DNA from: Elusimicrobiota bacterium
GTDB taxonomy: Bacteria > Elusimicrobiota > Elusimicrobia > FEN-1173
Reading direction: 5' to 3'
Length of the DNA: 64,000 nucleotides
Assembly: GCA_016722575.1 (NCBI GenBank)
Contig: JADKIY010000001.1
Coordinates: 704,810-768,809, forward strand
The notes under the pieces were generated by a model. It had not been told where the DNA came from, ran no database searches, and saw nothing but the letters and a program-made list of their open reading frames with translations. A program made the position numbers and the translations under genes. Positions 983-40,918 of this stretch are shown here, piece by piece. The number at the start of each line of letters is the position of its first letter. Position 1 is the stretch's first letter.

Positions 983-1215
983 CCCCAAGGGCGCGTTAAC
1001 CTCCCGAAATTATCATTAGGTTGTTCCTAAGATGTTTGCCGATTCCCCGGGAGGGACGCCTTGCACCGATTAATTGCCTCCGATTGCCAATGCGACGCCT
1101 GCCGCCAACGGCGCGTCGCCTATCTGTGGGTTCGCGGCGGCCGACGGGACCACCGGTCTCGGCCCCCCCACACCGAAACCTCGAAACGACCCCCCGAAAA
1201 AACCAAATTGCGCCA

Positions 1216-4200
1216 ATGGTGGAGCAACCTTTTCCGATGCGGATAAACGGCCGATCCTTTTCGACCGCGTTGCGCCGCGGCGCCCGCCCCGTTCTGGGCG
1301 GCGCCCTGGCCGCCGTTTATTTCCTGGTCAACGTTCCGGGGGTATACGCCGTCGAATCCAGCTTTTGGTCGGACCGGCGGGAGCGCGCCGGACGACGGCG
1401 GTCGCCGGACAATCCAACCCTTTTAGCGCAATTGCCGTCGGGGGCTCGTGCGCCGTTGGGGGACGCGGTCCTTCCCCCGGTCGCCGGTCGATTGTCCGAG
1501 GAGTCCCTGGGCGGCGCCGCCCGCCTTCCGGCCAAGACGCCCGCCTCCCCCGCCCTGCAACGGGCGTTCGGCTGGTTGCCCGCCGTGGTCGCCCCCTACG
1601 GGGACGTTCGCGACGTTTATTTGTCGCCCCGCCCCGGCGCGCCCACCATCATCCACCTTCAAGACGCCCACGAAATCGCCGAAGCCCAAAGGAACCTCGC
1701 GGGCCTGACCACGGCCCTGAAATCCGCCCGGGGGCTCTCCCTGGTGGGCCTGGAAGGCGCGGTGGGCGCCTTCGCCCTGGATCCCTATCGCCGTTATCCC
1801 AACGCCGACATCACCCGGGCCTTGGCGGACACCTTTTTGGGATTGGGCTATTTGACCGGCCCCGAAGCGGCCGCCGTGACCGGCGACAAGCCGCCGCTCC
1901 TCTGGGGCGTGGAAGACGCCGGCCTTTACCGGGACAACATTTCCGCCTTCGAAAATTCCGAACGAACCCGGGCTCGCGTTCAAGCCTTGGCCGCGAAATT
2001 GTCGGCCGCCGCCGACGAGGCTCGCGACCGTTATTACTCCCCCGCCCTTCGGGCGCTGGACGACCACCGCCGGGCCTACCACGAGCGGAAAGAAGGTTTG
2101 GCCGCTTACGCCGCGTATCTGTGGGGTCTGCGCAAAGGATCGCGGACCGAATTCGAGAACACGCGCCTGTTGCGGGAAGCCCTGCAATGGGAGGAGCGCC
2201 TCGACTTCGTCCAAGTCGAGAACGAGCGCCGGGCCCTGGTGGAGGGTCTTTCGCGCCGTTTGCCCGAGGACGCCCTGGCCGGACTGGTCCGGGAAAGTCT
2301 GGATTACCGGGCGGGCCGCCTCTCCTACGGGGACTACCACCGGTATCTCCGCCGTCTCTGCGCGGACCACGGGTTGGGGTTGGAGCGTTATCCTCAATTA
2401 AGCGCTTACGTGTCTTACGTCTTGTTGGCCGAGCGGATCGACCGGGACGGTCTTCTTCAAGAGCTGGTCGCCCTGGAAAAATCGGCGGAATCCGCCCTGG
2501 CGGTTTCCCCGGAGGAAAAGGCCCTGGTCTCCGTGCGCCGCGGTCTGACTCTGCTGGACAAATTAACCACCCACGGATTGACCCCGGCCGAGTGGCAGTC
2601 CTATCTGGTCGAAAGGCCCCGGTTGTTGGCCCTTCCCAAAACCCTTTCGACCCTGGTTCCCGGACGGATCGCCGGCGCCGACGCCCTGACGCCGGAAACC
2701 CTCGATTCCTTCGAGCGTTTTTGCTCCCGGGCCCTGGACCGCAACGGCGCGCTGATCAAAAACCTGTTGGAAAAAATGCGGGCCGAGGGCGCCTCGGCCG
2801 CCGTCCTCGTGGCGGGGGGCTTCCACACGGCGGGGCTGGCCCAGCTTTGCCGTCAACAGGGTCTATCCTACGCCGTCGTTTCCCCCCGACTGGCCAAAGT
2901 GCCCGCCGAGACCCGGCCCCTGGACGTGTTCGCCCGTTCGCCGCTCCCCTTGGAGAAAATCCTCGCGGGCGACGTCATCCATCTGGCCTACCCCCGGCTC
3001 GGCCAGGCCGCCGGCGAAGGATTGGCGGCCCAGGGCGCCGCCGCGGCCCGCCAGCAGACGGCCCAAATCCTCTGGGCGTCCTTTCAGGAATTTCTGGGGG
3101 GCCTCGCCACCAATTTTTCCGAAGGCGACCGCGACCGATTCGCCGAATTTGCCCGCCAATTTACCGCCGTGAGCGATTTAAGTGCCGACGTGTTGGAGTT
3201 GGGCGGGGGGATACGCGCTCTCGCCGTTCGGGTCACGGTTTCCAATGGGGACAAGAAGGAATTGGCGCTCCTGAGCGCCCCGGACGGCCGGGAAAACGTC
3301 TACGACCGCTTCGGCGCGGAGCCGGCCTTCGCGGGGCGGGTGGAATTGCCCTCGGGTCCCCTGGCCCTTCGGGTGTATGCGTTGAGCGATGTGTCCGGCC
3401 CGGGCCTGATCGGCCGGGTGGTTTGGTGGGGGGACCGCACACGGGGGTATTGGTCGGCCCACGCTCGGTCGTTGATCCAGCAATTGAATTTCCGGCTCGC
3501 CGGTTTGTCGGCCCCCAAAAAAGCCGTCGTTGAAACGGAGCTCTCCCTGGAGGAAGCCCACGGCCGGGCCATCGCTGAAGTTTCGGCCCGGTTGGGTCTG
3601 CGGACCCGGGAACTGGAACCCATCGCCCACCACATGGTCCGGGTTCGGGACCTCGCCGATCATCTGGCGCGGTCCCTCGGAACGAACGCGGAGGACATCG
3701 CGCTTCTCCGTTTGGCGGCGAGCGCCCACGACATCGGCAAATTCCACGAGGACTGCGTGGAGCACGTGATCACCCCCGATATCTTTCCCAAGGATTCCCC
3801 GGCGTTCCGGGCCCTGGCCGAACACGAACAATTGGTTTTCGACGTTCTGGGCCGGCAAAAACTCGTCCTGTCCGCGGAAGTGGCGATGATCCTCCGCGCC
3901 CACAGCGCCCTCGGGGCCGGGGCGAAGGAATCGCTGGACGCGGTGCCGGGCTTGACGGAGCGGCACGTCCGGCTGGCGTTGATTTTGTCGTTGGCCGACG
4001 TTTCCGACGGGTACCGCGACATGCACCGGCCGTACATTCAAGCCTTGGTGCAAAAAAGCGGTTTCCCGACGCTGGATCAACTTCGCCGCGAATTCCTGAA
4101 ATACGCCGCCAAAGCGGCCGGCAGTTCCTACGCCGGGGCCCTGCCCGACGCGGAGTCGGTGTTCGCCCGGGCGGCGGCGGAGCCCTGGTTCGCCGCCGCC

Positions 4201-7200
4201 ACGGAACGCACGTTGATCGAACACGTCGCCGGTTTGGTGGAAGCCGCCACGGCGGGCGATCCCGACGCGGAAAAAGCCCGGCGGCTTTCCCGGGAGATTT
4301 CATCCCACCGAATTCCCGCGTTGGCCACCCCGCCCGACCGGTGGTGGTCGGCGTTGGTCGAATCCCTTTTTGTTCGAGGCGCGACGGGCGATCAACGGGC
4401 GGCCGTCCTGGAGTCGCTGTTGACCACGCTCCAAACCGAAACGGCGGCGGGCCGCATCGATGGCGGTTTGGGGCTCGCGGGTCTGACCGCGGGCCTCCTT
4501 CCCGCCGGGCGGTCCCGTCCGGCCGCGGCCCGGGAAATTCTTTTGGCGCGGGAATGGACCTCCGAGAAAGCGTTGGCCAAGGACATCGACGCGACGGCCC
4601 AAGCCGTTCGCGAGCTCGCCGCGCAATACCCCGCGGTGGCCCCGGCGGCGTTGTCCTCGTTGACCAGTTACGCCCTGGGGGAAACCGAAGGCCACGGCGC
4701 CTGGGACGGTTCACCGGCCCGGCTGGAACTTTCCCGCCGAGGGAACACCCTGCGTCTCCGCATTGAAAACGACGGGGGGTATCCGCTTCCCAATCGGGCG
4801 CCCAAGAACATCCGCAACCGTTCCTTCACTCCCGCGACCGCGGAGCCGCTGATCTACAGTTCCCGGGGCGTGGAGTCCGGGTCGGGCGCCGGGACCGCCT
4901 ACATCGCCGTTTACTTCCATCAAATCTATCAAGCGGGTCTTCCGGACCAACTCACTTCCCGGGCCCGATTGGCCTGGACCCAGCGGGCCCTGGGCGAAAA
5001 TCGGTACCGCATCGCCCTGACGGTCCACCTTCCCTTGACGTCGGCGGCAACGATTCGGGGCGGCGCCATCCCCGCCGTCGCCGCTTTTTGGGAGCCCAAG
5101 TTCGTCTCTCTCCTGGGCGAACGTTGGGGCCGCTACTTTTATCGCGCGGTGGCCGGGCCCACCCTGGAAGACCTGTTCGGCGGGCTCCGCAACGCCGAAT
5201 CCATCAACAGCGCGCTTCTCTTTCCGCTCCTCGTTGGTTTCTTGATGAATCTCGGGGGCGATCCGGTCCTGGGCGCCTTCGTTCCCGCCTTTATCCTGTT
5301 CTTTAACCGCCTGCTGTTCGTGGCGCGCCATCCCGAAGGCCAGCGAACCGAAGCCGGGTTCGTCGCCGCGCTGGGAGGCGCCGGGGCTTTTGCCGTGGCC
5401 TGGATGGGCGCCTTTTCTCCGGTGGCGGTGGCTCTCGGTTTCCTCGCGGGATGGTCCTTCCACGTCGCGACCAACGCCGTGTTCAATTTGCCCGTCCTTT
5501 TCCAAGGGAAGTCGAAGGAACCGTCGGCGCCCGCGGCCCCGGCCCGAACAAAAATTGGATTGGTCCTCCTGATGATGGGGACCCTTTTCCTCTCGCCCAT
5601 GTACCGGGGCGGGGGGAGCGCCCTGATCGACGCGGCGGCCGACCGCTGGGCCGGGTTGGGCATCGCCGCGATCGGCCTGTTGATGTTGGCGACGTCGGGC
5701 AACCCCTTCGCGAACGCCAAGCGGGGAATCGACCGGATTTTGACCTCGTCCTTTGCCCAGGGCCTTTCCCGGCGCTGGACGGGACTGGTGCGCTGGATCG
5801 GCCGGAACAAAAGCCCCCTGTTGGCCGCGGGCTTCGCCGCCGCCCTGGGGTCCCTTTTCGGGCCCTCCAACCCCGAATTGATGATCGCGGCGGCCGCGGC
5901 CACCGGGACCCCCCTGGTGCGCCGGTCGGAACGCCGGGATCTGAACATCGCCTCGGTGAGCGTCGAGTTGGCCCCGCCCCACGGGGAGGTCAACCGGCAA
6001 ATCCGGGGTCTGATGGCTTTCGGTCACTCGATCCTTCGCCGCAACGCGGCGGGCGGGTGGAGCGCGGAGAACCACCGGGGCGCCCTGTCCCTGACGACCC
6101 GCGACGGGGAGGACCTGTCCCGGGACGGCGTTCTCAACGATTTCGAAATTCACCTGGTGGGCGACGGGGCGTTCCGTTACCTGCACGTTTGGCCTTGGGG
6201 CGCCCAGGAGGGCCACGGCGGGGGTTTAAGCACCGTCGGAACCCTGAACCCCGTCAAACGCGTCTTCATCGCCCGGGGGTTGTGGGAATCCGACCGGGAA
6301 CGGGCCTTGACCGTCCTGAAGCACGAAGCCACCGAAGTTAATTTGTGGTGGGAGCATTCGCTCAAGTTGGGTGACGAAAAACAAATCGTCAGCGTGGACC
6401 GAAAAGCCGAGGCGCTGGCCGCCGTCGCGGCCTTTCGCGGGCGCCCGCGCAAAAAAGCGGACGCGTTGGTCGCGGCCGACGCCAAATTGCCGACCATCCG
6501 CGAATGGATTCGGGCCAACGCCCTGGGGGCCGTGGTGGCCCTCACCAACCGGTTTCACAACATGGCGAACCGCCGCTACCGGACCGAACACCCCATGGAT
6601 TTCATTCCCCTTCCCAACACCCTGAGCGGTTCGGTCGCCATGGTGAGCTGGGAGCACCGGGACTTTTTCAAGAGGGGCGGCTTGGGCGACGCCATCAGTG
6701 AAGCGTCCTTCAATCTGGCCAAGCTGGGCCAGGACGTGGACCTTTACATGCCCATGCACAAGGAAATGGAAAACAAGGTCCCCTGGGTCGACACCCACCT
6801 CACCGTGCCGGTGGCGACCGCGGGGGAACGGGTGGTCTTCCATCTGTTCCGAACCGAGATCGACGTGCCGACCCCGGGCGCCGGCCGCTTAACGGTGTAC
6901 GCGCTGAAAGACGTCACCCCGCGGTCCGGCGACACCGAACGCTGGCGGCTCTTCCAGTACGGGTACAACCCCCCCAACGACCTGCGGTATTACGATTACC
7001 CGCTCAAGGAATCCGCCTTGGGAGCCAAAGCGGTGGTGGAGGCCATGAAATTGGTGAGCGGTGACCGGCGGGGCCGCGTTCGCTACCGGGCCGTCAACGC
7101 CCACGACTGGCAAGCCGCTTTGGTGCCCGTGCTCATGAAAGGGGACGCCTCTTTCGCCGGCGTCGGTCGCATTTTGACCGTTCACAACGGGGCGTACATG

Positions 7201-10200
7201 GGGAATTTCCGCCTTAAAAACGACGACGGGACCGACAGCTACAACCAGGAATTCCTCCGGGGGTTGGGCCTTCCCGCGGGCTACGATCGTTTCGGTCCCG
7301 GCGACCCCATTGAATTTCACGGCCAGATCGTTCTTCAGAAGGCGGCGCTGCTGGCCGCCCACAAGATCAACCCCGTCAGTCCCCAATACCGCAACGAATT
7401 GCTGAGCCCCGATGACTACGTGTTGCCCGGAAACACCCGGGACATGGCCGGGGTTTACCGCGCCCGTCAAGCCGATCTGGTCGGCGTGATGAACGGGTTG
7501 GACGACGACATCTGGAACCCCGAGCGGGACCCCGCCATCGCCGACGCGCCCTACGCCTACACCCCCTTCGTCGCCAGGGACGTGCGCGAGAAAAAACCCG
7601 CCAACAAGTCGAATTTTCAAAAAGCCCTGGGGTTGACCGTGGATCGCGATGCGCCGATGCTCTACACGTGCGCCCGCCTGTCGGAGCAAAAAGGGTTCGA
7701 TTTCGTGGCGGACGCCATGGAAGGCTTGTTGACGGAATTTCCCAAAGCGCAGTTCGTCCTCATGGGGGACAGCGACAACTCGGAAATGGGCAACGACCTC
7801 GCCCGGCGATTCACCGATTTCATGACACGCTACCCGGGCCGGGTTTGGTTCGGGCCTTTCGGGGGCCGCGGGGGGTGGGAACATTACATGGGGGCCGCGG
7901 CCGATTTCGTTTTGTCGCCCTCCCGCTTTGAGCCCTCCGGATTGACCGAGAAAAAGGGAATGCGTTTGGGCGCCGTCCCCATCGTCCGGGCCGTGGGGGG
8001 CCTGCAGGACACCGTCGTCGATCCGCGGGAGGACGCCGACAACGCCAACGGCTTCAAATTCATCGAGCCCACGGGCGCCGCTTTCGGCGAAGCCGCCCGC
8101 CGGGCTCTGCGGGCCTACGAGGCCGGCCACGGTCAACGTTTGGGCGACGAGCCCAACATCGATCTGCTCCAGCAAAACGCCATGCGCACGCCGAAATCCT
8201 GGGAGGACGTGGCGCGGGAGTATTTGGGACTCTATTCGGCCGCCCGGGACGCCGCCCACGACGAATCGACCGCCGAAGTGGCCGCGCGCCGCCACGCCGT
8301 TCCCCCCGCCGCTCCGCTGATCGGCCATTTGCCCGCGGGCGTCGACTTGGGCGCGATTCGCCTGGAACGGGGGGACGAAGTCCGCGGGGCCCTGGCCGAC
8401 CTCGAGGAATGGATGGCCACGGTCGTCAGCGGCCCGCCGCCGACGCTGGCCGGTTCCCGCCGGGGCGAGACGATCCCCCAAACGTTGGATATGCTCCGCC
8501 AGGAACTCGGGGCTTTGTCGTCCGACGCGGACGCCGGCCTTTTCGACGCCGACGCGTTCCAGCGCGAATCGGCCGGGCGGGTCCTGGGGTTCGGTTTCGC
8601 CGAAACCAAAACCGCCACCGGCCGGGCGCGTTTGGGATTGAGCGATGAATTTTTCAACCCCGACTCCGTTCTTTATCCCCACCGTCGGGAGGCCCTCTTT
8701 CACGAAGCGTACCACGTCGTCCTGGGGGTGGCGGACAACTCGACGATCCATCGCGACGCTCTGCGGATTCAGGCGGCCTTGTTTTGGGGCGTGCCGGTGG
8801 AAGAAGCCTACGCCCTTTCCCTGGAGCAATTGGAGGCTCATCCCAAGAACGCCCTCGGTCGAGCGCTTCGGGTGCGGCGCCTCCTCCGGGATTTCCGCGG
8901 CGAAGACGTCAACGGTTTGGCGGACCTGCTTGGGGAAAAACTCGAAAACGGCCAGCTGATTCCTTTTCTGACCGAGGCCGACGACGCGCTCAACGCCCCC
9001 CTGGCCCTGTCCCCGACCGCGTTGGAGCGTCGAACCTGGGAGCGGGTGGACCTCATGCGCCGCCTCGAAGGCCAACCGCCCAGGGGCCGCGGCGACCTGG
9101 ACCCCCGCTTCCTCGAAGCCCGGCGCGCCGAAGAGGATTGGTCCAAACCCCTCATCGAATCGGGTCCCGTGGAAGCCCCGCAACCTCTGCTGAAAGCCAT
9201 CGCTCTTTTAACGACCGAGCAGGAGGATCGCCTCCTGAACGAGTTGAGCGCCGCCGTCGCCCAGGATTCCGCTTTGGCCGACCGGCCCATCGTGGACGAC
9301 ATTTTTTTAATGACGGGACGGATCCCCAAGGGGTGGGCGAAGCTGCACGGAATCGCTTATCAGCGCGTTTACCATCTTTCCGCCGAAGGCCGGAAGGTTT
9401 GGGCGGGAGGGCTCGGGCCCGTGCAGGTGTTCCACAGCGACGCCGAACGGCAAATCACCCGGGATTCCGCATTCGACGTGGTGGACATCGAGCCCGATTA
9501 CACCCACCGTCGAACGGCCGAAGGCATGGTGCCCGCCGAGCGCGCGCGGCCCTCCACCCCGTTGAAGCCCTCCTTGGAGCCGCCCTTTGACCTGGAAGTG
9601 AAGTTCCAGGGCCGGCCCGTCAAAATTCGCGTTCGGCCCATGCGGGGCCCCGAAGGCAATCCCGTCTACCTGTTCCGGGACAATCCCGACGGGGACGCCC
9701 ATTTCACCAAACAGCTTTACGACTATCGGCCCAGCGGCGACAACCCGGCCTCCTGGGAGGAATTCACGGCGTTTTTCGGGGTGGCCACGCTCGCGGTCAT
9801 CGGCCGGTTGGAGGAAAATCGCTCCAAGGCTCTGGGCGCCCAATGGCGTCCGCCCGTGCTGCACGGCAACGACGCGCAAACGGCCATGGCCATCGTTCTC
9901 CTGGCCGAAATCGTCCGGGGGGGAAATCCCCGGTCCGAGGAATTGGTGCAGTCCGTTCCGTTCCTGGCGAAATTGGCTCCCCTGGCGGCCCGTACTTTTA
10001 AAACGCATACCTACGGGAACCGCCAGGGCTACACCTGGGGGAGGCCCGAGGATCACTACGGGGTGGCCTCCTATCTGAGCGGAATTCCCGAATGGGACCA
10101 CCAGCGATTGAATTTTTATTTTGCGCGCCGAGGGCCCGAAGCCCACGGGTATCCGGACGTCACCGCGGCGGCCATCGCCGCCACCCCGGGTCACGCCCAG

Positions 10201-13200
10201 GCGGTGGCCCGCAAGCACGGGTGGGACGTCATGCGGAAATACGACGATCCCCAATCGGTGGTGGGCATCACCAACGGCGCCAACCTGAAGTGGTCGGCGG
10301 GGCTTTTTTGGGATTATTTGGACGAGGTGGGGCACGAAAACGCCGACCGCCTGCGGCCCACCGCGGAACAGGTCCGGGACGCCAAACGGCTGGCGAAGGA
10401 GCGATTTTTCACGGATTTGTTGGTCCATCCGCAGCATGTGGAAGAGCAATTCTACCGGCGGTTTCGATTCATTTTGAACGATCCGGCCAAACGGGGGGAG
10501 CCGACCCCCGCCGTGGACCCCGCCCTGTTGAGCCAGCCGACGGTGGGTTTTGTGGGACGGCTGGTGAATGAAAAATTCAACATGAACCGCGGCTGGACCA
10601 CCCGAAACATTGAAGAACTCGTCAAAGCCGGCTACAACGTCGTGTTGTTCGCTCCGATTCAGCAGAAAAGCGACCCCACCAGCCCCAGCGCCGCCATGGC
10701 CCGGACCCTGGAGGCCCTTTCCGGAAACTTGGATCGGGAGTGGCGGCCGGGACACGGCCGGCTGATTTACATCGATTCCCGGGATTCGGAACTGAAAAAA
10801 TCCGCCCTGGCCTCTTTGGATATCCTCGTCCTCGATTCGGACAAGGACACGGAAGCCAACGGGTACACGGAAGTCGCGGCCTCCGCCTCCGGGGCCCTCG
10901 TTCTGTCGCCGCCCTTTCACAACGGCGAAGGGTTGATTCGCGGCCAAGGAATGCCCATCGATTTCTCGCAACCCGGCCACGGAAACACCCTGATCCCCGA
11001 CAATCAAAAGCCGGAATCGTACGTGGCGGTCTTGAAGAAGGCCCTGGAGGTCTACCAACAGCGTCCCATGGATTTCGCCGCCCACCAGGCGACCTCGGTC
11101 CGTCTAAGCCGCGTGCTGGAAGCGCGTCTCACCGCGGCGGCTTCCCTGCGGGATTTCAACTTGAGCTACTCCCTCCCCCTGGGGGTCGCGACGGATCCGT
11201 TGTGGTTCGGCGGGGTGAGCGTGGCCGAAAATCAACCCGCGAACCTGGAAGCGTGGGTGCGCGTGCGCCCGGGCGTGGATGCCACCCACTTGGACGTCCG
11301 GGCCCGTCTGGGCGAAGTCCCCGCGGGCCCCGCCTGGGGCGGGGAATGGTCCAACGGCCGGGAAATCCGGCTGGAGCCGGCGGGCCCCGCGGTCACGGCC
11401 GCGGACGGTACCGTGGCCCTGCGTTTTGCGAAATCGGTGGAACTTCCCCGCGGCGCCTACGAATTCGTCGTGGAGTCCCGGGATCGCCGGGAACCCCGGT
11501 ATTGGGTCCTTCAGGACGGCATTCGCTGGGGGCAAAACAACCGTTTGCTGGTGGGAACCCCGGCCCCGACCGGCGCTCCCGCGGGTCTTCTGCCGCTTTG
11601 GCGGCCCGTCATTCAGAATTTCCGGTTTGCCGGCTGGTCCGACCGAACCACCGTCCGGGTCCTGGGCGTGGTCGAAGAACTTTTCCTGATGGGCGCGGTC
11701 ACGCTCCTGGGCCGGGTTTTGGAAATGACGTTGGGTCTTCCCAGCGGCGTGAGCTTGTTGCTTTCCGCCGGGACGGCGGTGGCTCTCTTCCCCCTGGGTC
11801 ACGTGGGCGGCGTTCACTTCTTTGAACCCAGCGGGCGCCTGAAACTTTATCAAGCCACGGCGCGGGATTTAACGAAGCTCACGATCCTGGGGGCCGGACT
11901 GCGCACCGTCCACCTCGGTTTGGCCCTGGGTCTGCCCTGGTTGCTCACGGCCCTGGCCGGCGCTCCGATTTTGGGCCCGCCGGGCGCGTGGATCGAATTG
12001 GCCGCGCAACTCCTGCCCTTTTTGGCCGTGCCCCTCCTCCACGGCCGCTACAACGCCAACCCGCCCCGGGGATGGCCGCTGGGGATCCTCTCCTTTCAGC
12101 ACGCTCTTCTGGCCATCCGCTGGGGCACGACGGTCTCGGCCGGATTCTTTGAGCGCTTCGTTCCCCGTCAAGGCGTGCCCGTGGGGGACGGGTACATTTC
12201 AAATCCTCGCCGGACGGCGCTCATCGACCGGACGGTCGCGGCCCTGGCCGGCATGGCCGACGCCCGACTCAACGGCCTCAACCCCCTTTCCCTTAAGGGA
12301 ATCCTCGACATTGTTTTGAAAAACGTGGAGCAACACGGCGTTCCGGGGGCGGACGCCCAGGCCGCCGCGCGGATCGACGGCGGGGATTTTCTGTTGGAAA
12401 TTCGAAACGAAACCATCGCCCCGTTGTCGCCGGAATTGAACGGTGAATTTTCCGTCGGCCGGAGCAACCCCCGCGTGGCGGTCGAAAACCGGTCCCCCGG
12501 AACGGGGTATGGCATCGGGGTGACCCGGTTGCCGGGTTTGGTCCGGGGCTTGTACGACGTCGGCGCCGCCGATTTCGCCGAGCGGGCCCGATGGTCCTGG
12601 ACCACGGACGCCGCGACCCGGGAAGTCGTTTTTCAATTGCGCGCCCCCCTTCCGCCCGCGCCCGCGGCGGGGAAAGCCCACGAATTTGTTTCGGAATGGG
12701 AAATTCCGGGCGCCGTTCCCGAAGCGCCGGCCCCGGTCCCGATCTGGGGGTTGGTCGGCCGTCGGTTCGTGGCCCTGACGGCCTCCGTGGCTCTCTTTAT
12801 GAGCGGATTGGTTTCGGATTCTTCTCGGGCCTGGTCCCATCCGGTTTCCCCGGCGACCCGCGAAGCGTCGGCCGTTCCCGCCGGCTCCGATCAACCGTCC
12901 GCCTTGCTTTCCGCGGGGGCGATGGTCGTTCCCCTGGCCTCCCGCCGTCGGCGCAACGATTTTTGGCATCAAGTCGAAGCCGGGAAACACCCGGGTTGGC
13001 GGCTTCTGCGCGTCCCGGGGGCGAACGGCGAAACCATCGAAGCCGCGGTGAAGGAATCCGGCCAGGGCCCCCTGGTGGTCTGGAATTACGGCGGCGGGGC
13101 GGGTCCCGTTTTGAATCGGCAAGCCGATTGGTTCGCCAACCGGCCCGGGGTGGTCGTTCGCCGGCGGGACGCCGACGCCCACGTCCTGGTGGGTCAAACC

Positions 13201-16200
13201 GCCGGGGACACCGTCACGGTTTTGGAACAAATTCGCTCCCGCGGCGGTCCGGATTGGTCGGACGGCGGCGCCCTCGTCGTGGGGCATTCCTTGGGCGCCC
13301 ACGTCGCCACCACCGTGGCTCTGCGCCTTCAAGCGATGTCGCCGGGGGCCGTGCGGGGGGTCGTTCTTCTCAATCCGCCGGTGCCCAATGGCCTTTGGTA
13401 TTCCATGTTGATCGGCTGGCTCTCCTTCTTGAAGGGCGTCAGCGAGACTTTGGATTCCTGGATGGAGGCCGCGCGCTTCTCCTCCGCCTCCCGTCGGTCC
13501 CTTCGCCAACAGGAATCCCAGTGGTGGGGCCATTTCATCGAAAACTGGATCCCCTCGGCGGACGACGCTCGAACGACGGCCGACGCCCCGCCGGCCGTCC
13601 CCTGGGCCCTCTTCAACGGGTGGGACCACTTGCTGTCCGAGTCCCGGGCCCTGGGGAATTATTTGGAGACGACGCTGGCGGAATGCTTGGCCGAACTTTC
13701 GCGACTGCCCGCTCCGTTGCTGGTGGTCGGATCCCCCCACGATCCCCTGTGGGGGGAATTCGCGGCTTTTTATCGCGCGCTCCACCTTCGCGAGGTCGGC
13801 GAATCCGACGTTCTTCCGGAAACGGCCGCCCGGGCGCCCGCCCGCTTGTACGTCGAATTGTCGAACGGCGGCCAGGACGTATTGGCGGAGCACTCGCCCC
13901 ACATGTCGGCCCGCGCCGATCGGCTCAACGCGATTCTGGAGTCCTTTGCCCGGGCGGCCGACGGCCGCGGCCGCGCGGTGGGAGCCATCGGCCACCGCGT
14001 GGAGTTGGATTCGATTCGCTGGGGTCCCGACGGCTCCCTGATTTTCGCCCTTCAGCGGCCCGGCGGCTTCCCCCGGGACCTGCCCATCCTCTCGGCGACG
14101 CCGACGCGTTTTTCCGTTAAAGAGTCGATCGGCCGCCTGCGCCTTCGGGGCGGGGACCGCGGGACCCGATCCTCCGCGGACCCCCTGCGGCCCTTGGCGG
14201 ATCTTTTGGACCAACGGAGAATGTCGGCGCCCGCGGTCTACCGATTCGAGGATTCCCCCTTTAACCTTCGGGGGCTGGCTTTCGCCGGCACGGGGCTTCA
14301 CAACGCCGCCCTGGCGATTCACCAGGACCTGGCCCAATCCCAAGCGATCCGCGATCTGGCCATCCTCCACGAATTCCTCGAATACCTCTCCGCCAAAGGC
14401 TTCCTGGTCTACCGCTACGCGGCCGAAGAAGGGCTTCTTCGGATGAGTTTGAAAGTCCCGGGGACCTGGAGCGACTTCCAACGCCGGTGGGAGATCGAAC
14501 TGCCGCCGGCCGCCGCCGCTCTGGCCGCCCGGGGGGCGGAACGGGCCCACTACTTCCACCGCGCCCTGACCGCGGCCGCCTTGAACGACCTGGATGGGGA
14601 ATTGACCCGGACCATCCGGGAATCGGTGCGCCGACGGTTGCGGGTGGTGTCCGCGGCGAACGTCGGCGGTCGGGATAGAACCCTTCAGCCCGTTGTTCGA
14701 CGCCTGCGCCGCAACATGGAATCCGAGCATTTCATACCGCTCCTGGCCGAGTGGCTCCTCCACACGGGGATCCCCCGGAAGGACGGGTCCTTCAATTTGT
14801 TGCGCATGGAATTCCGGGCCTTTCCCAGCGGCGTGGTGTTGGAACGGCACGGCACGCTGGAGGAGCTCGACCTGAAAAGCCGCGGTTTTCAAACCGTTCG
14901 GTCCCTCCGTTCCGGGGACGTGGTCGTCCTTCCCTATTTGTTGAGCCAATTGATCGACGGTTACCGCCAACGCGTGGCCGAAACCGGGAAAGAACCGGAC
15001 GACGTTCATCCCAACGCCCTGCTGATGGATTTCCTCACCGCTCTTCCCGCCGGGGTGGTGCTGGCCTCGGTGGAGATGCCCTCGACCCTCGGGCAGTGGG
15101 GCCTGGAGGGGGCGCCCCTCGAGGGCTGGCTTCGCAATCACGCGCTGTGGGACGTGCCGCTCTGGCGGTTCATCCACGACACGGGTTGGTTCGACAACGT
15201 CTTGCCCCGGGCCGTGCCCCTCGACGCCCTGGACGGCGACCGGTTGAATCTGGACAACGGGACGTTCCTCACGCTCCAGGTCAAGCGGGATTCCCGGCTT
15301 CCGTCCGGCGGCCGGGCGGCGACCGGCGCCGTGTTGTCGCTGGCGTCCCCGAAGGGCGGGGACGGCGCTTTGTCCTCCCTCCTGACGCGCCGCTGGACGG
15401 AAAACGTTCTTCGACGGTGGGGGTTCCAACCGTCCGATCGATCCGTTCGCCTCGTCGCCGCCCTGGGCGTGGCCTGGTGGTACGAATTTCCGCGGACCCT
15501 CGCGGCGACCCGATTGGCCGATTTCGTTTACGAACACCCGGGGCCCCGGTGGATTCGTGTCGCCGGTTTGGCGGCGGTTTACGCGACGATGGGGTGGGCC
15601 TTCCTGGAAACCCTTCAATTCATGACCGGTCAAGCGAACCTCGTGCGTTTCGTCGCGGCCACGGCGGCGGCCCTGTTGGCCAATCCCCTGGGTCATTTCG
15701 CGTGGAATCTCGTTTTCGTTTGGACGGGGTGGGAACTGACCCGCGGTTCCGCCGTCCCCGCCCTCCCCATCCGCGCGGCCGGCCGTTCCCGGAGCGGATG
15801 GCGGGTGAAAACGGATTTGAGCGAACTGGAATTCCGTAACCGGAACACCGCGCCCGAAACCTGGACGCCCATTCCCCTTAAAGCCGAAGACAACGGAAGC
15901 TCCGCCCTCCCCTTCCTTCGACGCCCCTACGAACTTTTCCCCCGGTCCCCCCGCCGGGAAGGACCCGACGCCCCGAGCACTTCGGAAGTGGCCTACCTCC
16001 GGGTCGTCAAGGCCCTGGAATCCCTCGGCGCCTTGACGCCTCGATTGCTTTCGTACGACCCCGCCGCCCGGTTCCAGACCCCGGGCAAATCGGAACTTTT
16101 CGGACTGCGGGCGTTCTCCCATTGGATGCAAAAAAGCGACGGGGACTTGGTGGGCACGCCCGAGGGGTTGTCCTTCGTCGTCCTTCCCGCCGAGCTCTTT

Positions 16201-19200
16201 TCGGACCCCGCCGTCGCCCCGGCCGATCGCCGGGAGTATCTCGGAACGGCCGTCCTGATCGAGGCCATAAAAATTTTGCGTCTGGCCGGTCGCCTGACCC
16301 TGACCCTGGAGCGGGACGAACGGGGACCTTGGTTGTTGCTCTCGGTAACGAACGCCCAGGGGCGGGTGGAAACTTCGCGCTTCCTGGTGTACGGCGAGGT
16401 GGCCCGCATCCTAAGCCACCACCGGGATTTCCACCATTTGGCGCGGGCCCTCGTCGCCTATTGGATCCCGACCGCCGAAAAACGATTGAACGATTTTCTG
16501 GTGGCCCGGGACCTTCGCGGCTACGTGGAGATTTCGCCGGCGGCCGCGACCGCCGCCGCCCGCCCGCCGGCCCCGTGGGGCCGGGTCGCGGCGGCGCTTT
16601 TGGTCGGCGCGGCTCTGTCCTTCGGTCTGCCCGGAACGGATTTCATTTCCACGGCCGCCGCGGCGACCTGGACCCCCGCTTCCCCCGTCCGGTGGTTGGA
16701 TCCGTCCTTCGTGGCGACCGCCCTGACCTTGATTTTGCTCGCCGCGGCGGCGACGGTGGAGCCGCTTCGGGCCGGACTCCGCCGGTGGCCGGACCGCCTG
16801 GCGGCCGCCAAGGATTCGATTTTGATGATGGCCACGAGCCGCGGTCCCCCGGGCGGCCGCGGTCGCGGCGGGAATGGAAAACTCGGCGGAGAAGGCCCCC
16901 GCGTACCGGCCCGTGAAAAGGCCGAATTGCTTTTCAAGTTCAATGGGAAAATCGCCCTGGCGCGGAACGCCGGGGATTTTGAAACCCTCCGGGAAATATC
17001 GAATTGGGTGAAAGGCCTATCGCTTCGCCACGATCCCGACCTGGAGGCCGCCGTCCAACGATTGATCGCCGTCCACGACAGCCGCCGGGATTATCACTGG
17101 CGGCGGATGATCGGCAACGAAGAGCCCGCCGCGACGATCCAAGACGAATTGAAGTCCCTTTTGTTGAGTCGCCTGGGTTGGTCGCCCTCCCGACCGGCCC
17201 CCGCCGAAACGGAACGCCGGGCGACCGTTCTGTCGGCGGAAATTTTCAGCCGCGATCCTCGCAACAGCCGGGAATTGGATCAATGGATCGGCGAGGCCGT
17301 AAGATCATTGAGTCGGGACCTCCCCGCCAACGGCGGTTTGGAGCCGGCGATCCCCGTCGTTCCTTCCCCGTGGACGGGCGTGGCCACCGAAATAAAATCC
17401 GCGTCGGGCGAATTGCTGGCCACCATCCAAAAGGACGAGAACCGAAACGGATGGGTTCGGTTCTACGATGCGTCGGGTCGTCTTCGCCGGATGGAAAGCC
17501 GGGATCCGGCCCGTCCCGTCGTGGTTGTGAGGGAAGTCGGCCCCGGGGGCCGGCTCGACACCGTGATCGGCGGGCCGCGCTCGGCGGGGGGCGCTCCCCT
17601 GTCCCCCGTGTCCTTGGAGACGGACCGGTTGATCGAGGCCTTGGCGAATTACCACCGGTGGATCGCGGACTACGCGTCCTCCTTGCGGCGTCAAGGGGTT
17701 TCCGTGGAAGAAGCGACCGAGGCCGTGGAGTCCGCCCTTCGCGCGGGTCGCTACCGTTTGGCCGAACTGGTCGTGCGGAGCTGGCTGGACCTCCCGGGCA
17801 TGTACCGCCGGGCGGTGAACGGCGAAGAATCCTACCCGAACGAATTTCAAAGCCCACGGTTTCAGGGGACTTTTGCCGATTTTGTCAGAACGGTCGGGGA
17901 ACGGGGGGCGGTCCACGGCCTGAACAGCGCCACCTTGAAGGAGAATTCGGACGGCTCCCATTATTTTGTCCACGAGTTGATGCCGTTTACCTTGCTGGAA
18001 AACAGCATCAATTATCACTTTGCGAACATGCGCAATGACCTCAGCCCGGCGGGGGAAAACGAGCGGCCCGTCATCCTCTTCTTCGACATTGAGAAGTTGC
18101 CGCCCTTGTCCATGAAAAACCCGCTGGAAGTCAAATTCCGCGAAATGGTGGAAGCGCCCTTGGTCGCCCTGCGGCCCGAGAGTCGGCGGGTCGCGGAATC
18201 CCTCGTTGGCCCCCTCGAAGGATCGGGGGCGACGGCCGACGTTCGCCGGGCGCTGGACGACGCCGCCGGGTGGGCGCCGACTCCGGGGGCGGGACGAGCC
18301 CAACGGGGATACTCCCTGCCAATCGTTTTGGTGGGTTTATCGTTGGGGACTTTGGTGGCCCTTTCCGTGATTCCGTGGATTGGAATTTTCCCGTCTCTGG
18401 CGGCGGGCCTCCTCTCCGCGATCGCCGTTGCCTTGGCGGCGGAGAATTTGTTGATCCTCCCCGGCATCCGGTACGGACCTTCCCGGGCCGCTTTCGAGAC
18501 CCTGCGCCGGGCGGTGGCGGCGACCCAAACCATTCCCGAGGACGACCGGGCCCTGGCCGACCTTAAGAAATCGTTTACGGAGTTTAAGGCCGCGATGAAG
18601 GAATCGGCGGGCGGGATGCCCGACGCCTCCTCCTACCGCGCCTTCATGTGGGCGTTTTCCGACGGTTTGGACGCCGTGGTTCGGGAAGTGTTCCGGCGCG
18701 CGGCCCGGAAGCACCGCCTCTTGAACCGCACGGCCCTGATGGCCCACGGCAGTTACGGGTCCCGTCGGCCGGGCCTGATATCGGACGTCGATTTGCACCT
18801 TCTGCTTCCGAACGACTTGGCCTACCCGGCCCCGGACAACGAGACGGGCGCCGCCGCCGAGGCCCTGTATTACGGATTGGAAAAAGTCCTGAGCGCCCAG
18901 GACCCCAAGCCGCTGAAGGATTATCAGCACGCCGGCGACGTTGAGCGCGCCATGGCCTTTTGGGAACCCAGGTCCCATGAGATGGGGAGTCTCTACACGG
19001 GCGTGGACGCTCTGCGGGTCTACGGGTTGAACGCGCGCCCGGTGGCCGGCAACGCCCGGTTGTTCGAGGAGGGCGTCCGGCCGGGCTACCGGCGCCTGCT
19101 TTCCCGAAATCGGCGCGAAATCCTGCGCGGGGTGATCTTGGAGAGGGAGGCCCAATTTGAAAGGGCCGATTCCAGCTTGCTGCGCCCGGATTTCAAGGCC

Positions 19201-21474: not shown

Positions 21475-21512
21475 TCCGGCCCGCCGTTGATTTTTTGTAT
21501 CGTGTCGGTCCC

Positions 21513-22679: not shown

Positions 22680-23065
22680 AACGAATTTCAAGTCTGCTTC
22701 TTCTATTGTCGGCGGCCGTGCCCGCCTGGGCCGACGGTCGTCCCGCCGGCGCGCCCAACGGGGGACTCATGATGATGGTCCCTTGGATCGCGATCCTGGG
22801 CGTCTTTTATTTCCTTCTGATCCGTCCCCAGCAAAAACAGGCCAAACAGCACCAGGCGCTCTTGGACAATTTGAAGCGCGGCGACCGCGTTCTCACCCAG
22901 GGCGGAATTTACGCCACCATCCAGTCCGTCAAAGGGAAAGTCCTGGAAGTGAAGTTGTCCGAAGACGTCAAGGTCCTTCTGTCGCGCAGCCACGTGGCCC
23001 AAGTGGTCCCCAACGACCCGGCCCAGGAAACCGAAACGACCGCCACCAACGGCGCCCATGCCTAA
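22676..23065 (+). CDS. yajC: Preprotein translocase subunit YajC
   Basis: YajC core (FLLIRPQQKQAKQHQALLDNLKRGDRVLTQGGIYATI). GTG start overlaps the tgt stop (GTGA). Confidence 0.85.
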   Translation: MKRISSLLLLLSAAVPAWADGRPAGAPNGGLMMMVPWIAILGVFYFLLIRPQQKQAKQHQALLDNLKRGDRVLTQGGIYATIQSVKGKVLEVKLSEDVKVLLSRSHVAQVVPNDPAQETETTATNGAHA

Positions 23066-40825: not shown

Positions 40826-40840
40826 ACGCCGCGGGCGATG

Positions 40841-40849
40841 TGGTATAAT
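40841..40849 (+). promoter_or_regulatory. Extended -10 promoter element TGgTATAAT upstream of the hldE-kinase/kdsB/pyrG genes
   Basis: Perfect TATAAT hexamer with an upstream TGn, about 70-100 nt before the candidate starts of the next gene. Confidence 0.35.
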
Positions 40850-40918
40850 TCCGTCGTCCCACACACCGTTGGTTCGGCCCTTTAGGATTTTACGCGTGAT
40901 CAACCCGTTGTCCTCCCA

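Follow-up and report, generated by a model that had tools for sequence, protein, structure and literature searches.

A giant ORF carries two GT-B domains

The window (the whole 64,000-nucleotide stretch of DNA that was analysed) contains a single ORF of 20.4 kb on the forward strand (1021..21474) that encodes 6,817 aa and encloses the domain under study. Its product is a multi-domain, membrane-anchored protein in which hydrophobic helices form several clusters. The following features were located on it:

aa 869-994, +, HD domain (in-frame Pfam match)
aa 1872-2364, +, GT5 plus GT1 (in-frame Pfam matches)
6634..8239, aa 1872-2407, +, canonical GlgA-like GT5 glycogen/starch synthase domain, upstream of the domain under study
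downstream of GT5 plus GT1, +, second GT5-like in-frame Pfam match
8701..8715, +, HEAYH (HExxH) motif from a regex scan, in the ~310-aa linker separating the two GT-B domains
9166..11166, aa 2716-3382, +, domain with the GT-B fold, from an unnamed family related to GT5 and GT35 (the domain under study)
11167..11640, aa ~3383-3540, +, all-beta segment directly after the domain, followed by a transmembrane cluster
about aa 4063-4157, +, alpha/beta-hydrolase (in-frame Pfam match)
about aa 6040-6126, +, GlnD_UR_UTase (in-frame Pfam match)
ACT domain, + (in-frame Pfam match)
aa ~91, 1399-1472, 3545-3650, 4666, 5226, 5766-5816, and 6470, hydrophobic segments

The upstream GlgA-like domain matches TIGR02095 (glgA) across model positions 3-476 of 477 (E 2e-82) and PF08323 (7e-30), with the motifs KRGGLGD, AHDWQ, TVHNG, RLSEQKG, and FEPSGL. 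A preliminary description of this DNA had placed a phosphorylase-like domain at 9330-11100, about 1 kb downstream of the synthase domain in the same polypeptide. The measured distance is about 0.93 kb and the location was correct, but the conserved domain is somewhat larger (nt 9166-11166), with a length of ~665 residues. An AF2 model of it was of moderate quality (pLDDT 73).

Conserved motifs and the PLP-lysine position

Alignments to E. coli GlgA and GlgP, together with conservation across the family, located the following elements in the domain:

9385..9423, +, N-lobe motif E2789-x6-GGLGPV (conservation and hhalign to GlgA)
9856..9900, aa 2946 onward, +, VLHGNDAQTAMAIVL, containing N2950-D2951-x-Q2953 (alignment and conservation)
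9997..10023, +, FKTHTYGNR, with H2996 aligned with GlgA H161 and GlgP H359
10267..10278, +, ITNG, with N3085 invariant and equivalent by alignment to GlgA N246 (LNG) and GlgP N466 (TNG)
10540..10578, aa 3174 onward, +, TVGFVGRLVNEKF, equivalent of the phosphate-binding Arg-x4-Lys
10834..10908, +, C-lobe catalytic loop DSDKDTEANGYTEVAASASGALVLS (alignments and conservation)
10876..10878, +, GCG codon of Ala3286, equivalent of the GT35 PLP Schiff-base lysine (alignments)

The four GT35-like motifs listed in the preliminary description are all where it put them, in one frame of the single ORF (1021-21474, +); WAGGLGPV starts at aa 2794 (nt 9400) and TEANGYTEVAASASGALVLS at aa 3277 (nt 10849). In the N-lobe motif, the Glu and G-G-L-x-x-V are invariant across the family and align with E9 and T16-GGL of E. 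coli GlgA and with GGLGRLA of GlgP; where GT5 has Lys15, family members have Ala, Gly, or a gap, and the window copy has Trp. N2950-D2951-x-Q2953, of which Q2953 is invariant, aligns with H136-D137-W-H139 of GlgA and N320-D321-T-H323 of GlgP. H2996 and T2997 of FKTHTYGNR are invariant, and N3000 and R3001 nearly so. R3180 and K3185, retained in 151/151 sequences, align with R300/K305 of GlgA and R551/K556 of GlgP. In the catalytic loop (DS-x4-TEAxG[YF][TS]E), S3273 and E3284 are invariant, E3278 aligns with GlgA E377 and GlgP E654, and the S-x4-E spacing matches that of GT35.

GT35 enzymes carry their PLP on a lysine of the C lobe, which in MalP is K646 (PMC11046441). Profile alignments paired Ala3286 with this residue and with K662 of GlgP (both E. 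coli), as well as with the PLP lysine of two phosphorylase structures, 9l6i (..TSGEK..) and 4l22 (..TGNMK..), so that every alignment made gave Ala3286 at this site. The family column holds D in 103 sequences, N in 28, A in 8, and K in none, and none of the 151 members has a lysine at aa 3277-3287 or, on either side of the site, up to 5 residues away. The reported absence of the PLP lysine was thus confirmed in the window and its homologs, all of which keep the phosphate-binding Arg and Lys.

Comparison with GT5 and GT35 enzymes

A 16-sequence family profile searched against the PDB had as its best single sequence match a GT35 enzyme, alpha-glucan family phosphorylase 9l6i of S. copri (E 2.8e-7); rice GBSS1 also matched, at 3.2e-6. 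Matches of this significance show real homology rather than chance resemblance, and with the GT35 spacing of the loop they uphold the proposed relationship to bacterial/archaeal alpha-glucan phosphorylases. In hhalign comparisons, the 151-sequence profile aligned with GlgA over 488 columns, corresponding to full-length GT5 (score 106, 97.9%, E 4.2e-13), and with GlgP/MalP at a score of 80 (96.2%, E 2.7e-9). The N half scored 69.5 for GT5 versus 42.9 for GT35, and the C half 46.1 versus 50.0.

PF08323 (Glyco_transf_5) was the only Pfam model to match the window domain (a partial match of 25 bits, threshold 22.7); it matched 11/16 members (best 1.5e-21), and PF00343 matched 1/16, at 0.007. The NCBIfam glgA model matched 10/16 members (best 3e-22) and the NCBIfam alpha-glucan phosphorylase model 2/16 (best 9e-5). 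No match of the window sequence to PF00343, PF11897, or TIGR02093/4 was found. The preliminary description had favoured a GT35-like over a GT5 assignment and had named a better GT5 score as evidence against it; by Pfam, NCBIfam, and hhalign the segment scores better as GT5. Because a 151-sequence family HMM gave 24 bits for E. coli GlgP and no match for E. coli GlgA, and because the best PDB match is GT35, "closer to GT5" is a majority verdict and not a unanimous one. These comparisons indicate that the family shares homology with GT5 as well as GT35 and stands between the glycogen synthases and the glycogen phosphorylases, with GT5 likeness strongest especially in the N-terminal acceptor lobe and a C-lobe catalytic loop that has GT35 spacing.

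With GT5 (GlgA, SSI-IV, GBSS; PF08323 plus PF00534; TIGR02095) the family shares the full-length profile-profile alignment, the lack of PLP, the N-lobe opening [SA]-x-E-x5-7-GGL, the strand H-x-[HN]-D-x-[HQ]-[TA]-[AG], and the elements T-x-H (H161), N-G (N246), R-L-x-x-[QE]-K (R300/K305), and E-x-x-G-[LY]-T-[QE] (E377/G380/T382). It differs from GT5 in its length (~665 versus ~480 aa, with a helical N-terminal extension and insertions), in not conserving Lys15 of K-x-GGL, in separating the conserved Ser from the catalytic Glu by four residues rather than two, and in its invariant E3284, which is Gln in GT5. No PF00534-type C-lobe match was found in the family, and TIGR02095 scores range from 14 bits (the window sequence) to 80, far under the 328-bit cut-off. 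With GT35 (Segatella copri GlgP 9l6i, of the TIGR02094 type, and classical glycogen/maltodextrin phosphorylases) it shares GGLG[RV], N-D-x-[HQ], [FY]-T-x-H-T, T-N-G, R-x4-K, and the identically spaced loop [DQ]-x-S-x4-[TK]-E-A-x-G-[TY]-[ST]. In contrast to GT35, all 151 members have the Schiff-base lysine replaced (D, N, or A), and the N lobe is much shorter, GT5-like, and free of the long insertion between the first-strand Glu and GGLG. Structural similarity to the PLP-independent retaining GT4 enzymes (GlgM maltose-1-phosphate synthase, trehalose phosphorylase) is clearly below that to GT5 and GT35; by inspection the family spacing is E-x5-E versus E-x7-E in GT4, and no GT4 Pfam matches were found for the family.

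Distribution and conservation of the family

The family comprises 272 cluster representatives, found mostly in proteins of 800-7,335 aa from Omnitrophota (including MAGs), Elusimicrobiota, and Planctomycetia, and as stand-alone proteins in ANME archaea. Members are already labelled 'glycogen/starch synthase' by the Pfam and NCBI pipelines. Like the giant Omnitrophota proteins ('Archaeovorins', bioRxiv 10.1101/2023.11.21.568195; sugar-metabolism 'Module 2', bioRxiv 10.64898/2026.06.07.730766), carriers are TM-anchored, reach several thousand residues, and mix HD, ATPase-like, GT5, GT1, hydrolase, and regulatory domains, with PF08323 as the sole Pfam label of the family members. Both papers used Pfam labels only, did not split this divergent family from canonical GlgA, and did not discuss the GT35-like loop or the PLP site (bioRxiv 10.1101/2023.11.21.568195; 10.64898/2026.06.07.730766). 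Unlike the Omnitrophota giants, the nearest relative of the window protein (P0002, partial, 93% identity) comes from an Elusimicrobiota MAG.

The 151 aligned sequences share ~25-35% identity (median 31% to the query) and a conserved, helical N-terminal extension (PVExxYPxLKAVxLL). Invariant positions include E2789, GGL2796-8, Q2953, H2996, T2997, N3085, R3180, K3185, S3273, and E3284, aligned with GlgA E9, GGL, H161, N246, R300, K305, E377, and T382, which indicates that positions aligned to the active site are under strong purifying selection. The loop Glu is at +1 in 108 sequences (TEAAGYTE) and at +4, with Gly swapped in, in 43 (TGA[AS]EYTE); a carboxylate that has moved but been retained is what a functional residue would show. 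In about 145/150 members the domain is the only GT5-like domain of its protein and so is not just an accessory to a canonical synthase. The domains fused to it are those of alpha-glucan enzymes: GH77, GDE_C, ROK, and UDP-glucose dehydrogenase, besides a weak match to UDPGP. In the window's own clade the otherwise conserved S3049, G3051, and R3053 are all Ala, as is D/N3286, suggesting that the copy in the window could have lower activity than is usual for the family.

Predicted activity and alternative explanations

On these comparisons, nt 9166-11166 probably encode a catalytically competent, PLP-independent, retaining GT-B glycosyltransferase of a large unnamed family that falls among the alpha-glucan GT-B enzymes, closest overall to GT5 and with a GT35-like loop. 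Our best reading is a new GT5-like subfamily of retaining alpha-glucan glycosyltransferases; the domain is most likely not a broken phosphorylase but an active enzyme that builds glucan without a cofactor. The C lobe would bind a glucosyl donor whose leaving group is a phosphate, most likely NDP-glucose, its phosphate(s) gripped by R3180 and K3185 with a contribution from the N-terminus of the G3281-Y-T3283 helix. E3278, and possibly E3284, would act with H2996, N3085, D2951, and Q2953 to hold in the interdomain cleft both the glucose being transferred and the terminus of the acceptor, an alpha-1,4-glucan, and transfer would be retaining, as in GT5. The donor and acceptor proposed here come solely from homology and fusion partners. 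Because the GT35 PLP lysine is missing from every member, the domain is expected to bind no PLP, and given the higher GT5 scores its absence is what a synthase-like enzyme would show rather than a GT35 loss. The earlier suggestion of a different mechanism survives as PLP-independent chemistry. The domain and the preceding canonical GlgA domain may work sequentially on one glucan.

GT4 includes PLP-free retaining phosphorylases, and the domain could, like the GT4 trehalose phosphorylases, use orthophosphate and glucose-1-phosphate as GT35 does but without a cofactor, as a phosphorylase of alpha-glucans or as a glucan synthase that depends on glucose-1-phosphate. This corresponds to the different mechanism raised in the preliminary description. 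We consider it unlikely, even though the loop resembles GT35 in spacing and sequence (S-x4-T-E-A-x-G-[YF]-[TS] versus S-x4-[KT]-E-A-S-G-T-[SG]), stand-alone members have weak precomputed matches to PF28476 ('GlgP_C'), and both the best PDB match and the family HMM point to phosphorylases. Published sugar modules of giant Omnitrophota proteins also join PF08323 to ROK kinase and phosphoglucomutase (PGM), makers of glucose-1-phosphate, and NDP-sugar pyrophosphorylase is absent among the domains listed for them (bioRxiv 10.64898/2026.06.07.730766). However, curated GT5 models outscore those of GT35 for most members, the margin being many orders of magnitude; the N lobe clearly resembles that of GT5; and no substitute was identified in the domain for the PLP phosphate that is the GT35 acid/base. 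The weak UDPGP match and UDP-glucose dehydrogenase domains of some carriers suggest that NDP-glucose may arise on the same polypeptides. That the domain is a genuine GT35 phosphorylase with its PLP on another lysine is very improbable: the C half offers the invariant K3185 and, in about 93% of members, K3122 and K3126, but the former aligns with the phosphate-binding Lys of both GS and GP, the latter align with the K-x-x-x-K helix ahead of the C lobe that GT5 also has, no member has a lysine near the PLP site, and no GT35 model matches the window.

An active retaining GT-B transferase with a substrate other than alpha-1,4-glucan (a protein, lipid, or polymer of the cell wall, which might be that of prey, or a non-glucose sugar) is given a similarly small chance to that of the PLP-free phosphorylase. 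Giant 'Archaeovorin' proteins with GT5 domains have prey cell envelopes or glycoproteins as proposed targets (bioRxiv 10.1101/2023.11.21.568195), the archaeal stand-alone genes lie outside glycogen operons, no glg genes were found in the window neighbourhood, and GT5 Lys15 and other family-specific residues differ. Nevertheless, alpha-glucan enzymes take all the top places in both structural and sequence comparisons, with GT4 behind; the sugar-binding His, Asn, and Asp positions common to GS and GP are invariant; and the family is fused to GH77, GDE_C, and canonical GlgA, with a GlgE N/S-like domain following in P0003. Still less probable is the non-catalytic glucan-binding module of the preliminary description, a degenerate GT35- or GT5-like pseudo-enzyme that would only bind glucan or scaffold the neighbouring synthase. 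Both the PLP lysine and Lys15 are missing, family membership scores fall under threshold, and in the window's clade a canonical GlgA adjoins the domain and three conserved residues are Ala. In alpha-glucan GT-B enzymes, Arg, Lys, and Glu are conserved for catalysis (PMC11046441), and invariant residues aligned with these and with the sugar-binding His and Asn, in GT5 and GT35 alike, make a dead module unlikely. In all, 15 invariant and about 20 near-invariant positions in 151 sequences align exactly with catalytic residues, the relocation of the loop Glu is compensated, most carriers have no other synthase domain, and the window copy keeps every family-invariant residue.

Segments flanking the domain

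A Pfam scan of the ~310-aa linker between the two GT-B domains gave no match, nor did one of aa ~3383-3540. The latter segment is possibly a beta-sandwich, as single-sequence AF2 predicts 6-7 strands (pLDDT only 49). A weak GlgE_dom_N_S match lies at the equivalent C-terminal position of P0003, a stand-alone archaeal homolog.

A second GT-B domain in a giant membrane-anchored protein

A single ORF of 6,817 aa (window 1021-21474, + strand) encloses the domain under study, which spans aa 2716-3382 (window 9166-11166). Domain matches fall in frame along the whole ORF and are accompanied by clusters of hydrophobic helices; the ORF is therefore a genuine membrane-anchored multi-domain protein, about two thirds of which has no Pfam match. 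The G+C content of the window is uniform, at about 62-70%. An antisense ORF (9307-11085, 592 aa) was discarded as a shadow frame of the GC-rich coding strand, since every homology is on the + strand.

Features of the giant protein (amino acid positions)
869-994, + strand: HD domain, in-frame Pfam match
1872-2364, + strand: Glyco_transf_5 and Glycos_transf_1, in-frame Pfam match
2794, + strand: motif WAGGLGPV, in frame
2852-2964, + strand: second, weak Glyco_transf_5 match, in-frame Pfam match
2946, + strand: motif VLHGNDAQTAMAIVL, in frame
3174, + strand: motif TVGFVGRLVNEKF, in frame
3277, + strand: motif TEANGYTEVAASASGALVLS, in frame
near 4063-4157, + strand: alpha/beta-hydrolase, in-frame Pfam match
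near 6040-6250, + strand: GlnD_UR_UTase (GlnD-type nucleotidyltransferase) and ACT domains, in-frame Pfam match
~91, 1399-1472, 3545-3650, 4666, 5226, 5766-5816 and 6470: hydrophobic helix clusters

Upstream stands a canonical GlgA-like synthase domain (TIGR02095 E 2e-82, model positions 3-476 of 477), in which a motif scan located KRGGLGD, AHDWQ, TVHNG, RLSEQKG and FEPSGL. Its end is near nt 8239, and conservation in the second domain begins at nt 9166. The preliminary description had placed a GT35-like domain about 1 kb downstream of the GT5 synthase in the same polypeptide, and this arrangement was confirmed; the four motifs quoted for it are all present in one frame of the giant ORF. The ~310-aa linker separating the two GT-B domains gave no Pfam match and contains HEAYH, the sole HExxH of the giant protein (window 8701-8715, aa 2561-2565).

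A widespread family shared by archaea and giant bacterial proteins

A word-indexed search for relatives of the domain found three proteins: P0001 (70% identity to the query domain), P0002 (93% identity, an Elusimicrobiota MAG protein that NCBI calls 'glycogen/starch synthase, partial') and P0003 (33% identity, a stand-alone protein of 849 aa). A homologue search with a diverse alignment returned the same three and none further. The giant protein is similar to TM-anchored Omnitrophota giants, and the partial P0002 is its closest relative. An exhaustive HMMER search with a profile built from these three relatives yielded 272 cluster representatives at E<=1e-3, of which 201 passed E<=1e-30, with carriers almost all between 800 and 7,335 aa in length. 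Alignment of 150 full-length copies of the domain to the query gave identities to it with a median of 31% and a minimum of 25%. The family is recognizable as a domain of about 620-740 aa with a PVExxYPxLKA start, followed by E-x5-6-GGLG[RP]V, N-D-x-Q, T-H-T-[YF]-x-N-R, T-N-G, R-L-V-x-E-K, S-x4-T-[EG]-A-x-[GE]-x-[TS]-E and E-G-x-x-x-x-Q-G. The window domain falls within this definition and retains all 15 columns that are invariant in the 151 sequences.

With a 4-sequence alignment as query, relatives in the genome collection were found as stand-alone genes in ANME-1/Methanophagales and Methanosarcinales MAGs, and also in Planctomycetia and Omnitrophota. Because the archaeal contigs bearing the gene also carry Mrp/Mbh, MCR_C and CdhC genes, they are genuinely archaeal. 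The stand-alone genes, of ~830-890 aa, lie on archaeal contigs L004-L008, L010, L011, L016, L097 and L099 (ANME-1/Methanophagales, Methanosarcinales); the domain is embedded in giant proteins at loci L012-L015 (Omnitrophota) and L009 (Planctomycetia) and in Elusimicrobiota. The family is thus common to ANME/methanogen-related archaea and to giant proteins of these three bacterial groups. Transfer between archaea and Omnitrophota is conceivable, since Omnitrophota are reported predators of methanogenic archaea.

Two further arrangements recurred. About 40 representatives besides relatives P0029, P0034 and P0040 share an architecture of ~1,750-1,900 aa with the domain at residues ~400-1,100, flanked by conserved N-terminal (~400 aa) and C-terminal (~700 aa) regions that both lack a Pfam match; conserved patches in these flanks include HET.F...STG.GHFQG..DIK. 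On the archaeal contigs listed below, a small ORF (116-169 aa, no Pfam match) stands immediately upstream of the stand-alone homologue and abuts or overlaps its start, which suggests translational coupling and a conserved partner protein.

Small ORFs upstream of archaeal stand-alone homologues (contig, positions)
L002, 9646-10029
L003, 127-510
L097, 9649-9999
L098, 934-1284
L099, 9472-9981

We found no published description of the family as such in the literature searched. Of two preprints on giant proteins from Omnitrophota and relatives, one ranks GT5 'glycogen synthase' domains second in frequency among the domains of 'Archaeovorins' (bioRxiv 10.1101/2023.11.21.568195) and the other describes a sugar-metabolism module of PF08323, PF00534, phosphoglucomutase and ROK, interpreted as cytoplasmic enzymes on TM-anchored giants (bioRxiv 10.64898/2026.06.07.730766); neither separates the family from canonical GlgA. 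Annotation pipelines likewise merge it with GlgA as 'glycogen/starch synthase' through a marginal PF08323 match, which conceals a family in its own right, numbering at least 270 sequence clusters.

The PLP-lysine position is devoid of lysine throughout the family

In GT35 enzymes PLP is carried on a lysine of the C lobe, K646 in E. coli MalP (PMC11046441). Using hhalign, both MalP K646 and GlgP K662 aligned to query residue 536, Ala3286, and HMMER alignments placed the lysines of ..TSGEK.. (9l6i) and ..TGNMK.. (4l22) on the same family column. Across the 151 sequences this column holds D in 103, N in 28, A in 8 and K in none, and no lysine occurs anywhere in aa 3277-3287. The Schiff-base lysine of the GT35 loop E-A-S-G-T-x-x-M/E-K is therefore absent from the window domain, as the preliminary description had proposed, and its absence extends to the homologues. 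We also considered PLP bound to another lysine and rejected it, as the conserved lysines align to residues that are present in GT5 too.

The same C-lobe loop aligns equally well to GT5 (DS--/RF, E3278-E377, G3281-G380, T3283-T382, E3284-Q383 and A3286-Y385, GlgA numbering second), and to our knowledge GT5 enzymes never have a lysine at the PLP site. For these reasons the missing lysine would be expected in a synthase-like enzyme and, as judged from the alignments, is not a sign of decay.

The domain shares homology with GT5 and with GT35

That glycogen synthases and phosphorylases are homologous is textbook knowledge, and curated models were used as the rich-profile test of which the domain resembles more. 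The only Pfam match of the window segment was PF08323 (Glyco_transf_5; E 1.6e-5, 25.2-25.4 bits against a gathering threshold of 22.7), covering model positions 62-149 only. PF08323 matched 11 of 16 diverse family members (best 1.5e-21), near full-length in P0003 (2-229 of 239), and whole carrier proteins showed PF08323 but never PF00343 (Phosphorylase). Against NCBIfam the window domain had nothing at E<=0.01: TIGR02095 glgA reached 14.4 bits (E 0.011) against a trusted cut-off of 328, and its matches to 10 of the 16 members (best 3.1e-22) were all far below that cut-off. The GT35 models PF00343, PF11897, TIGR02093 and TIGR02094 gave no window match at E<=10 (Pfam) or E<=0.1 (NCBIfam). Among the 16 members, TIGR02094 (alpha-glucan family phosphorylase) matched two (best 8.9e-5) and PF00343 one (E 0.007), all below cut-off. 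The C-lobe model Glycos_transf_1 (PF00534) had no match in the window and one among the members (E 0.003). A newer model, PF28476 (GlgP_C), has weak precomputed matches on stand-alone members, unplaced on the sequence; these are weakly consistent with a GT35-ward lean of the C-lobe loop region.

Searches of PDB sequences with the single sequence or a 4-sequence profile retrieved nothing relevant; matches to GT35 and GT5 appeared only with the diverse profile of 16 sequences. The top match of this profile was the S. copri alpha-glucan family phosphorylase 9l6i (E 2.8e-7, profile 291-537), followed by rice GBSS1 (3.2e-6, profile 211-513), S. mutans phosphorylase (7e-5), a cyanobacterial GS (1.2e-4), 2c4m (6e-4) and liver GP (1.3e-3). 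We then compared the 151-sequence family alignment with a GT5 pair (E. coli GlgA and the window's own GT5 domain) and a GT35 pair (E. coli GlgP and MalP), so that each comparison profile consisted of two sequences; a metagenome scan for diverse GT35 sequences gave only E. coli-like GlgP (78-100% identity).

Profile-profile comparison of the family alignment with the GT5 and GT35 pairs
Full domain, GT5 pair: 97.9%, E 4.2e-13, score 106, 488 columns across all of GlgA
Full domain, GT35 pair: 96.2%, E 2.7e-9, score 80
N half: score 69.5 (GT5 pair), 42.9 (GT35 pair)
C half: score 46.1 (GT5 pair), 50.0 (GT35 pair)

A plain family HMM gave the opposite order, with E. coli GlgP (24 bits) and MalP (15) ahead of the window GT5 domain (8) and no match to GlgA. 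An AlphaFold2 model of aa 2751-3410 (pLDDT 73, pTM 0.73) retrieved S. copri GlgP (5.5e-14), Arabidopsis SSIV (3.4e-13) and many glycogen phosphorylases (about 1e-12) with Foldseek.

Taken together, these comparisons show that the family shares homology with GT5 as well as GT35, yet it passes as a member of neither when judged by the thresholds of those families. Its N lobe and overall profile are nearer to GT5, and the region around the C-lobe catalytic loop is slightly nearer to GT35. The original GT35-like reading is thus right in that the resemblance is real and the lysine missing, but not in the domain's closer affinity. A better score as GT5 than as GT35, which had been named as grounds for abandoning that reading, was obtained with Pfam/NCBIfam and in the full-domain profile-profile comparison, while the C half, the plain family HMM and the best PDB match favour GT35.

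Invariant residues argue for catalysis

Fifteen residues are invariant in 151 of 151 sequences: E2789, G2796, G2797, L2798, V2801, Y2900, Q2953, H2996, T2997, V3062, N3085, R3180, K3185, S3273 and E3284. Others, among them N2950, D2951, N3000, R3001, D3046, E3184, T3277, A3279, E3303, G3304 and G3310, are conserved in at least 90%.

Residues of the window domain aligned by hhalign (window; E. coli GlgA; E. coli GlgP)
E2789; E9; -
G2796-G2797-L2798; G17-G18-L19; -
N2950; H136; N320
D2951; D137; D321
Q2953; H139; H323
H2996; H161; H359
N3085; N246; N466
R3180; R300; R551
K3185; K305; K556
E3278; E377; E654
T3283; T382; S659

Equivalents of the GT5 active-site residues His161, Asn246, Arg300, Lys305 and Glu377 are present in the window domain; of these, we take H161, R300, K305 and E377 of E. 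coli GlgA to be functionally important from the mutagenesis literature. The GT-B fold with a phosphate-binding Arg-x4-Lys and a catalytic-loop Glu, as expected of GT35, is likewise found. Lys, Arg and Glu are catalytic residues conserved across GT-B alpha-glucan enzymes (PMC11046441). The lysine of the GT5 K-x-G-G-L motif (E. coli K15) is replaced by Trp2794/Ala2795 in the window, with GGL invariant; across the family the position is mostly Ala, Gly or a gap, and Lys in only 8 of 151. K15 presumably matters for E. coli GlgA function, as indicated by mutagenesis.

The catalytic loop occurs in two forms. In 108 of 151 sequences it reads TEAAGYTE (aa 3277-3284, window 10849-10872), with E3278 present, and in the remaining 43 TGA[AS]EYTE, with Gly at E3278 and Glu at the G3281 position. 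Glu and Gly have thus traded places at a distance of three residues. The exchange resembles a compensated relocation of a carboxylate, whose retention in both forms argues for function.

The preliminary description had offered a non-catalytic glucan-binding module as one explanation for the lost lysine. A canonical GT5 domain stands upstream only in the window's closest relatives (P0022 and P0024, same order, linker about 300-370 aa), and the family domain is the sole GT5-like domain in about 145 of 150 carriers, so a purely accessory, non-catalytic role is unlikely. Together with the invariant residues aligned to active sites, this points to a domain that is probably catalytic. The window copy itself may have a shifted or attenuated function compared with the rest of the family: in its clade (the query, P0001, P0022 and a few others) DVTAAAIA replaces the family D-x-x-S-x-G-x-R (S3049, G3051 and R3053 to Ala; aa 3046-3053, window 10156-10179), and the conserved D/N at 3286, the PLP-lysine-equivalent column, is Ala (window 10876-10878). 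The AlphaFold2 model is least confident in the DVTAAAIA region.

Proposed activity and relationship to known families

Established for the domain are its fold, its homology to both families, the lack of a PLP lysine, the invariance of active-site-aligned residues and the fusion with alpha-glucan enzymes. Beyond these, we propose that it would be an active retaining alpha-glucosyltransferase that does not need PLP. A donor with a phosphate leaving group would be bound through R3180, K3185 and the helix end at G3281-T3283, and the glucosyl unit and acceptor would be held by E3278 (possibly E3284), H2996, N3085, D2951 and Q2953. Since GT5 and almost every other GT-B enzyme use such donors, NDP-glucose would be the likeliest one here; in view of the GT35-type loop, a phosphorylase-like chemistry with glucose-1-phosphate/Pi and without PLP is a less likely but more novel alternative.

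In the proposed glucosyltransferase, the domain would act as a GT5 synthase while resembling a GT35 phosphorylase in part. It differs from GT35 in lacking the PLP lysine and any GT35 model match, and from GT5 in lacking Lys15, a PF00534 match and a trusted glgA score. On sequence grounds the most fitting description is a new GT5-like subfamily, deeply divergent and with a catalytic loop of GT35-like type, which is possibly separate from GT5 as a family of its own. An NDP-sugar-dependent, PLP-free 'proto-GT35' that recruited PLP later has been hypothesized (PMC11046441, section 6.3). The family has the properties expected of such an enzyme, but similarity alone does not fix its evolutionary position. 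We consider it rather unlikely that the family is a surviving PLP-free lineage bridging GT5 and GT35, whether as a 'proto-GT35' NDP-sugar-dependent enzyme or as a cofactor-independent alpha-glucan phosphorylase or glucose-1-phosphate-dependent glucan synthase; if it were, it would merit its own CAZy family.

The family bears on the transition from a nucleotide-sugar enzyme to a PLP enzyme, or the reverse. Its synthase-like acceptor lobe, phosphorylase-like loop and lack of a PLP lysine make it a concrete, abundant and testable candidate for an intermediate or a new cofactor-free glucan enzyme, and its importance would be higher if cofactor-free phosphorylase chemistry, or a phylogenetic place at the GT5/GT35 junction, proved true. 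It is also the main GT5-like component of its carriers, many of them giants of debated function from Omnitrophota, Elusimicrobiota and Planctomycetia, and is available as a simple, expressible 850-aa protein in ANME-1 archaea.

Fusion partners and gene neighbourhood

Carriers also contain GH77 4-alpha-glucanotransferase, GDE_C amylo-1,6-glucosidase, ROK kinase, UDP-glucose dehydrogenase, APH-type kinase, glpX-type FBPase and receiver domains, and a weak UDPGP match. The C-terminal end of P0003 has a weak GlgE N/S-like domain match, and with the carrier domains this points to alpha-glucan metabolism. At the equivalent position of the giant protein, directly after the domain and before the transmembrane cluster, lies an all-beta segment (window 11167-11640, aa ~3383-3540). 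Its single-sequence AlphaFold model has 6-7 strands at low confidence (pLDDT 49), it had no Pfam match, and BLAST showed no similarity to the C-terminus of P0003; a carbohydrate-binding beta-sandwich is one possibility.

Neither the window neighbourhood nor those of the stand-alone archaeal homologues contain glycogen (glg) or NDP-sugar genes, and they gave no clue to the donor. The rest of the window carries chromosomal genes that are ordinary for a diderm bacterium: tgt, secD, a GT4, a lipid A acyltransferase, a T2SS ATPase, a GlcD-like oxidase and polA. Three long ORFs on the - strand, either genes or GC-rich shadow frames, have no Pfam match at E<=1e-4:
39956-41305, - strand: 449 aa
42468-44381, - strand: 637 aa
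61154-63994, - strand: 946 aa

The giant gene is directly followed by tgt (queuine tRNA-ribosyltransferase) and then by secD/secF-type genes (window 21336-24497). Because the listed tgt ORF shares about 140 nt with the end of the giant ORF, the true tgt start is probably further downstream.
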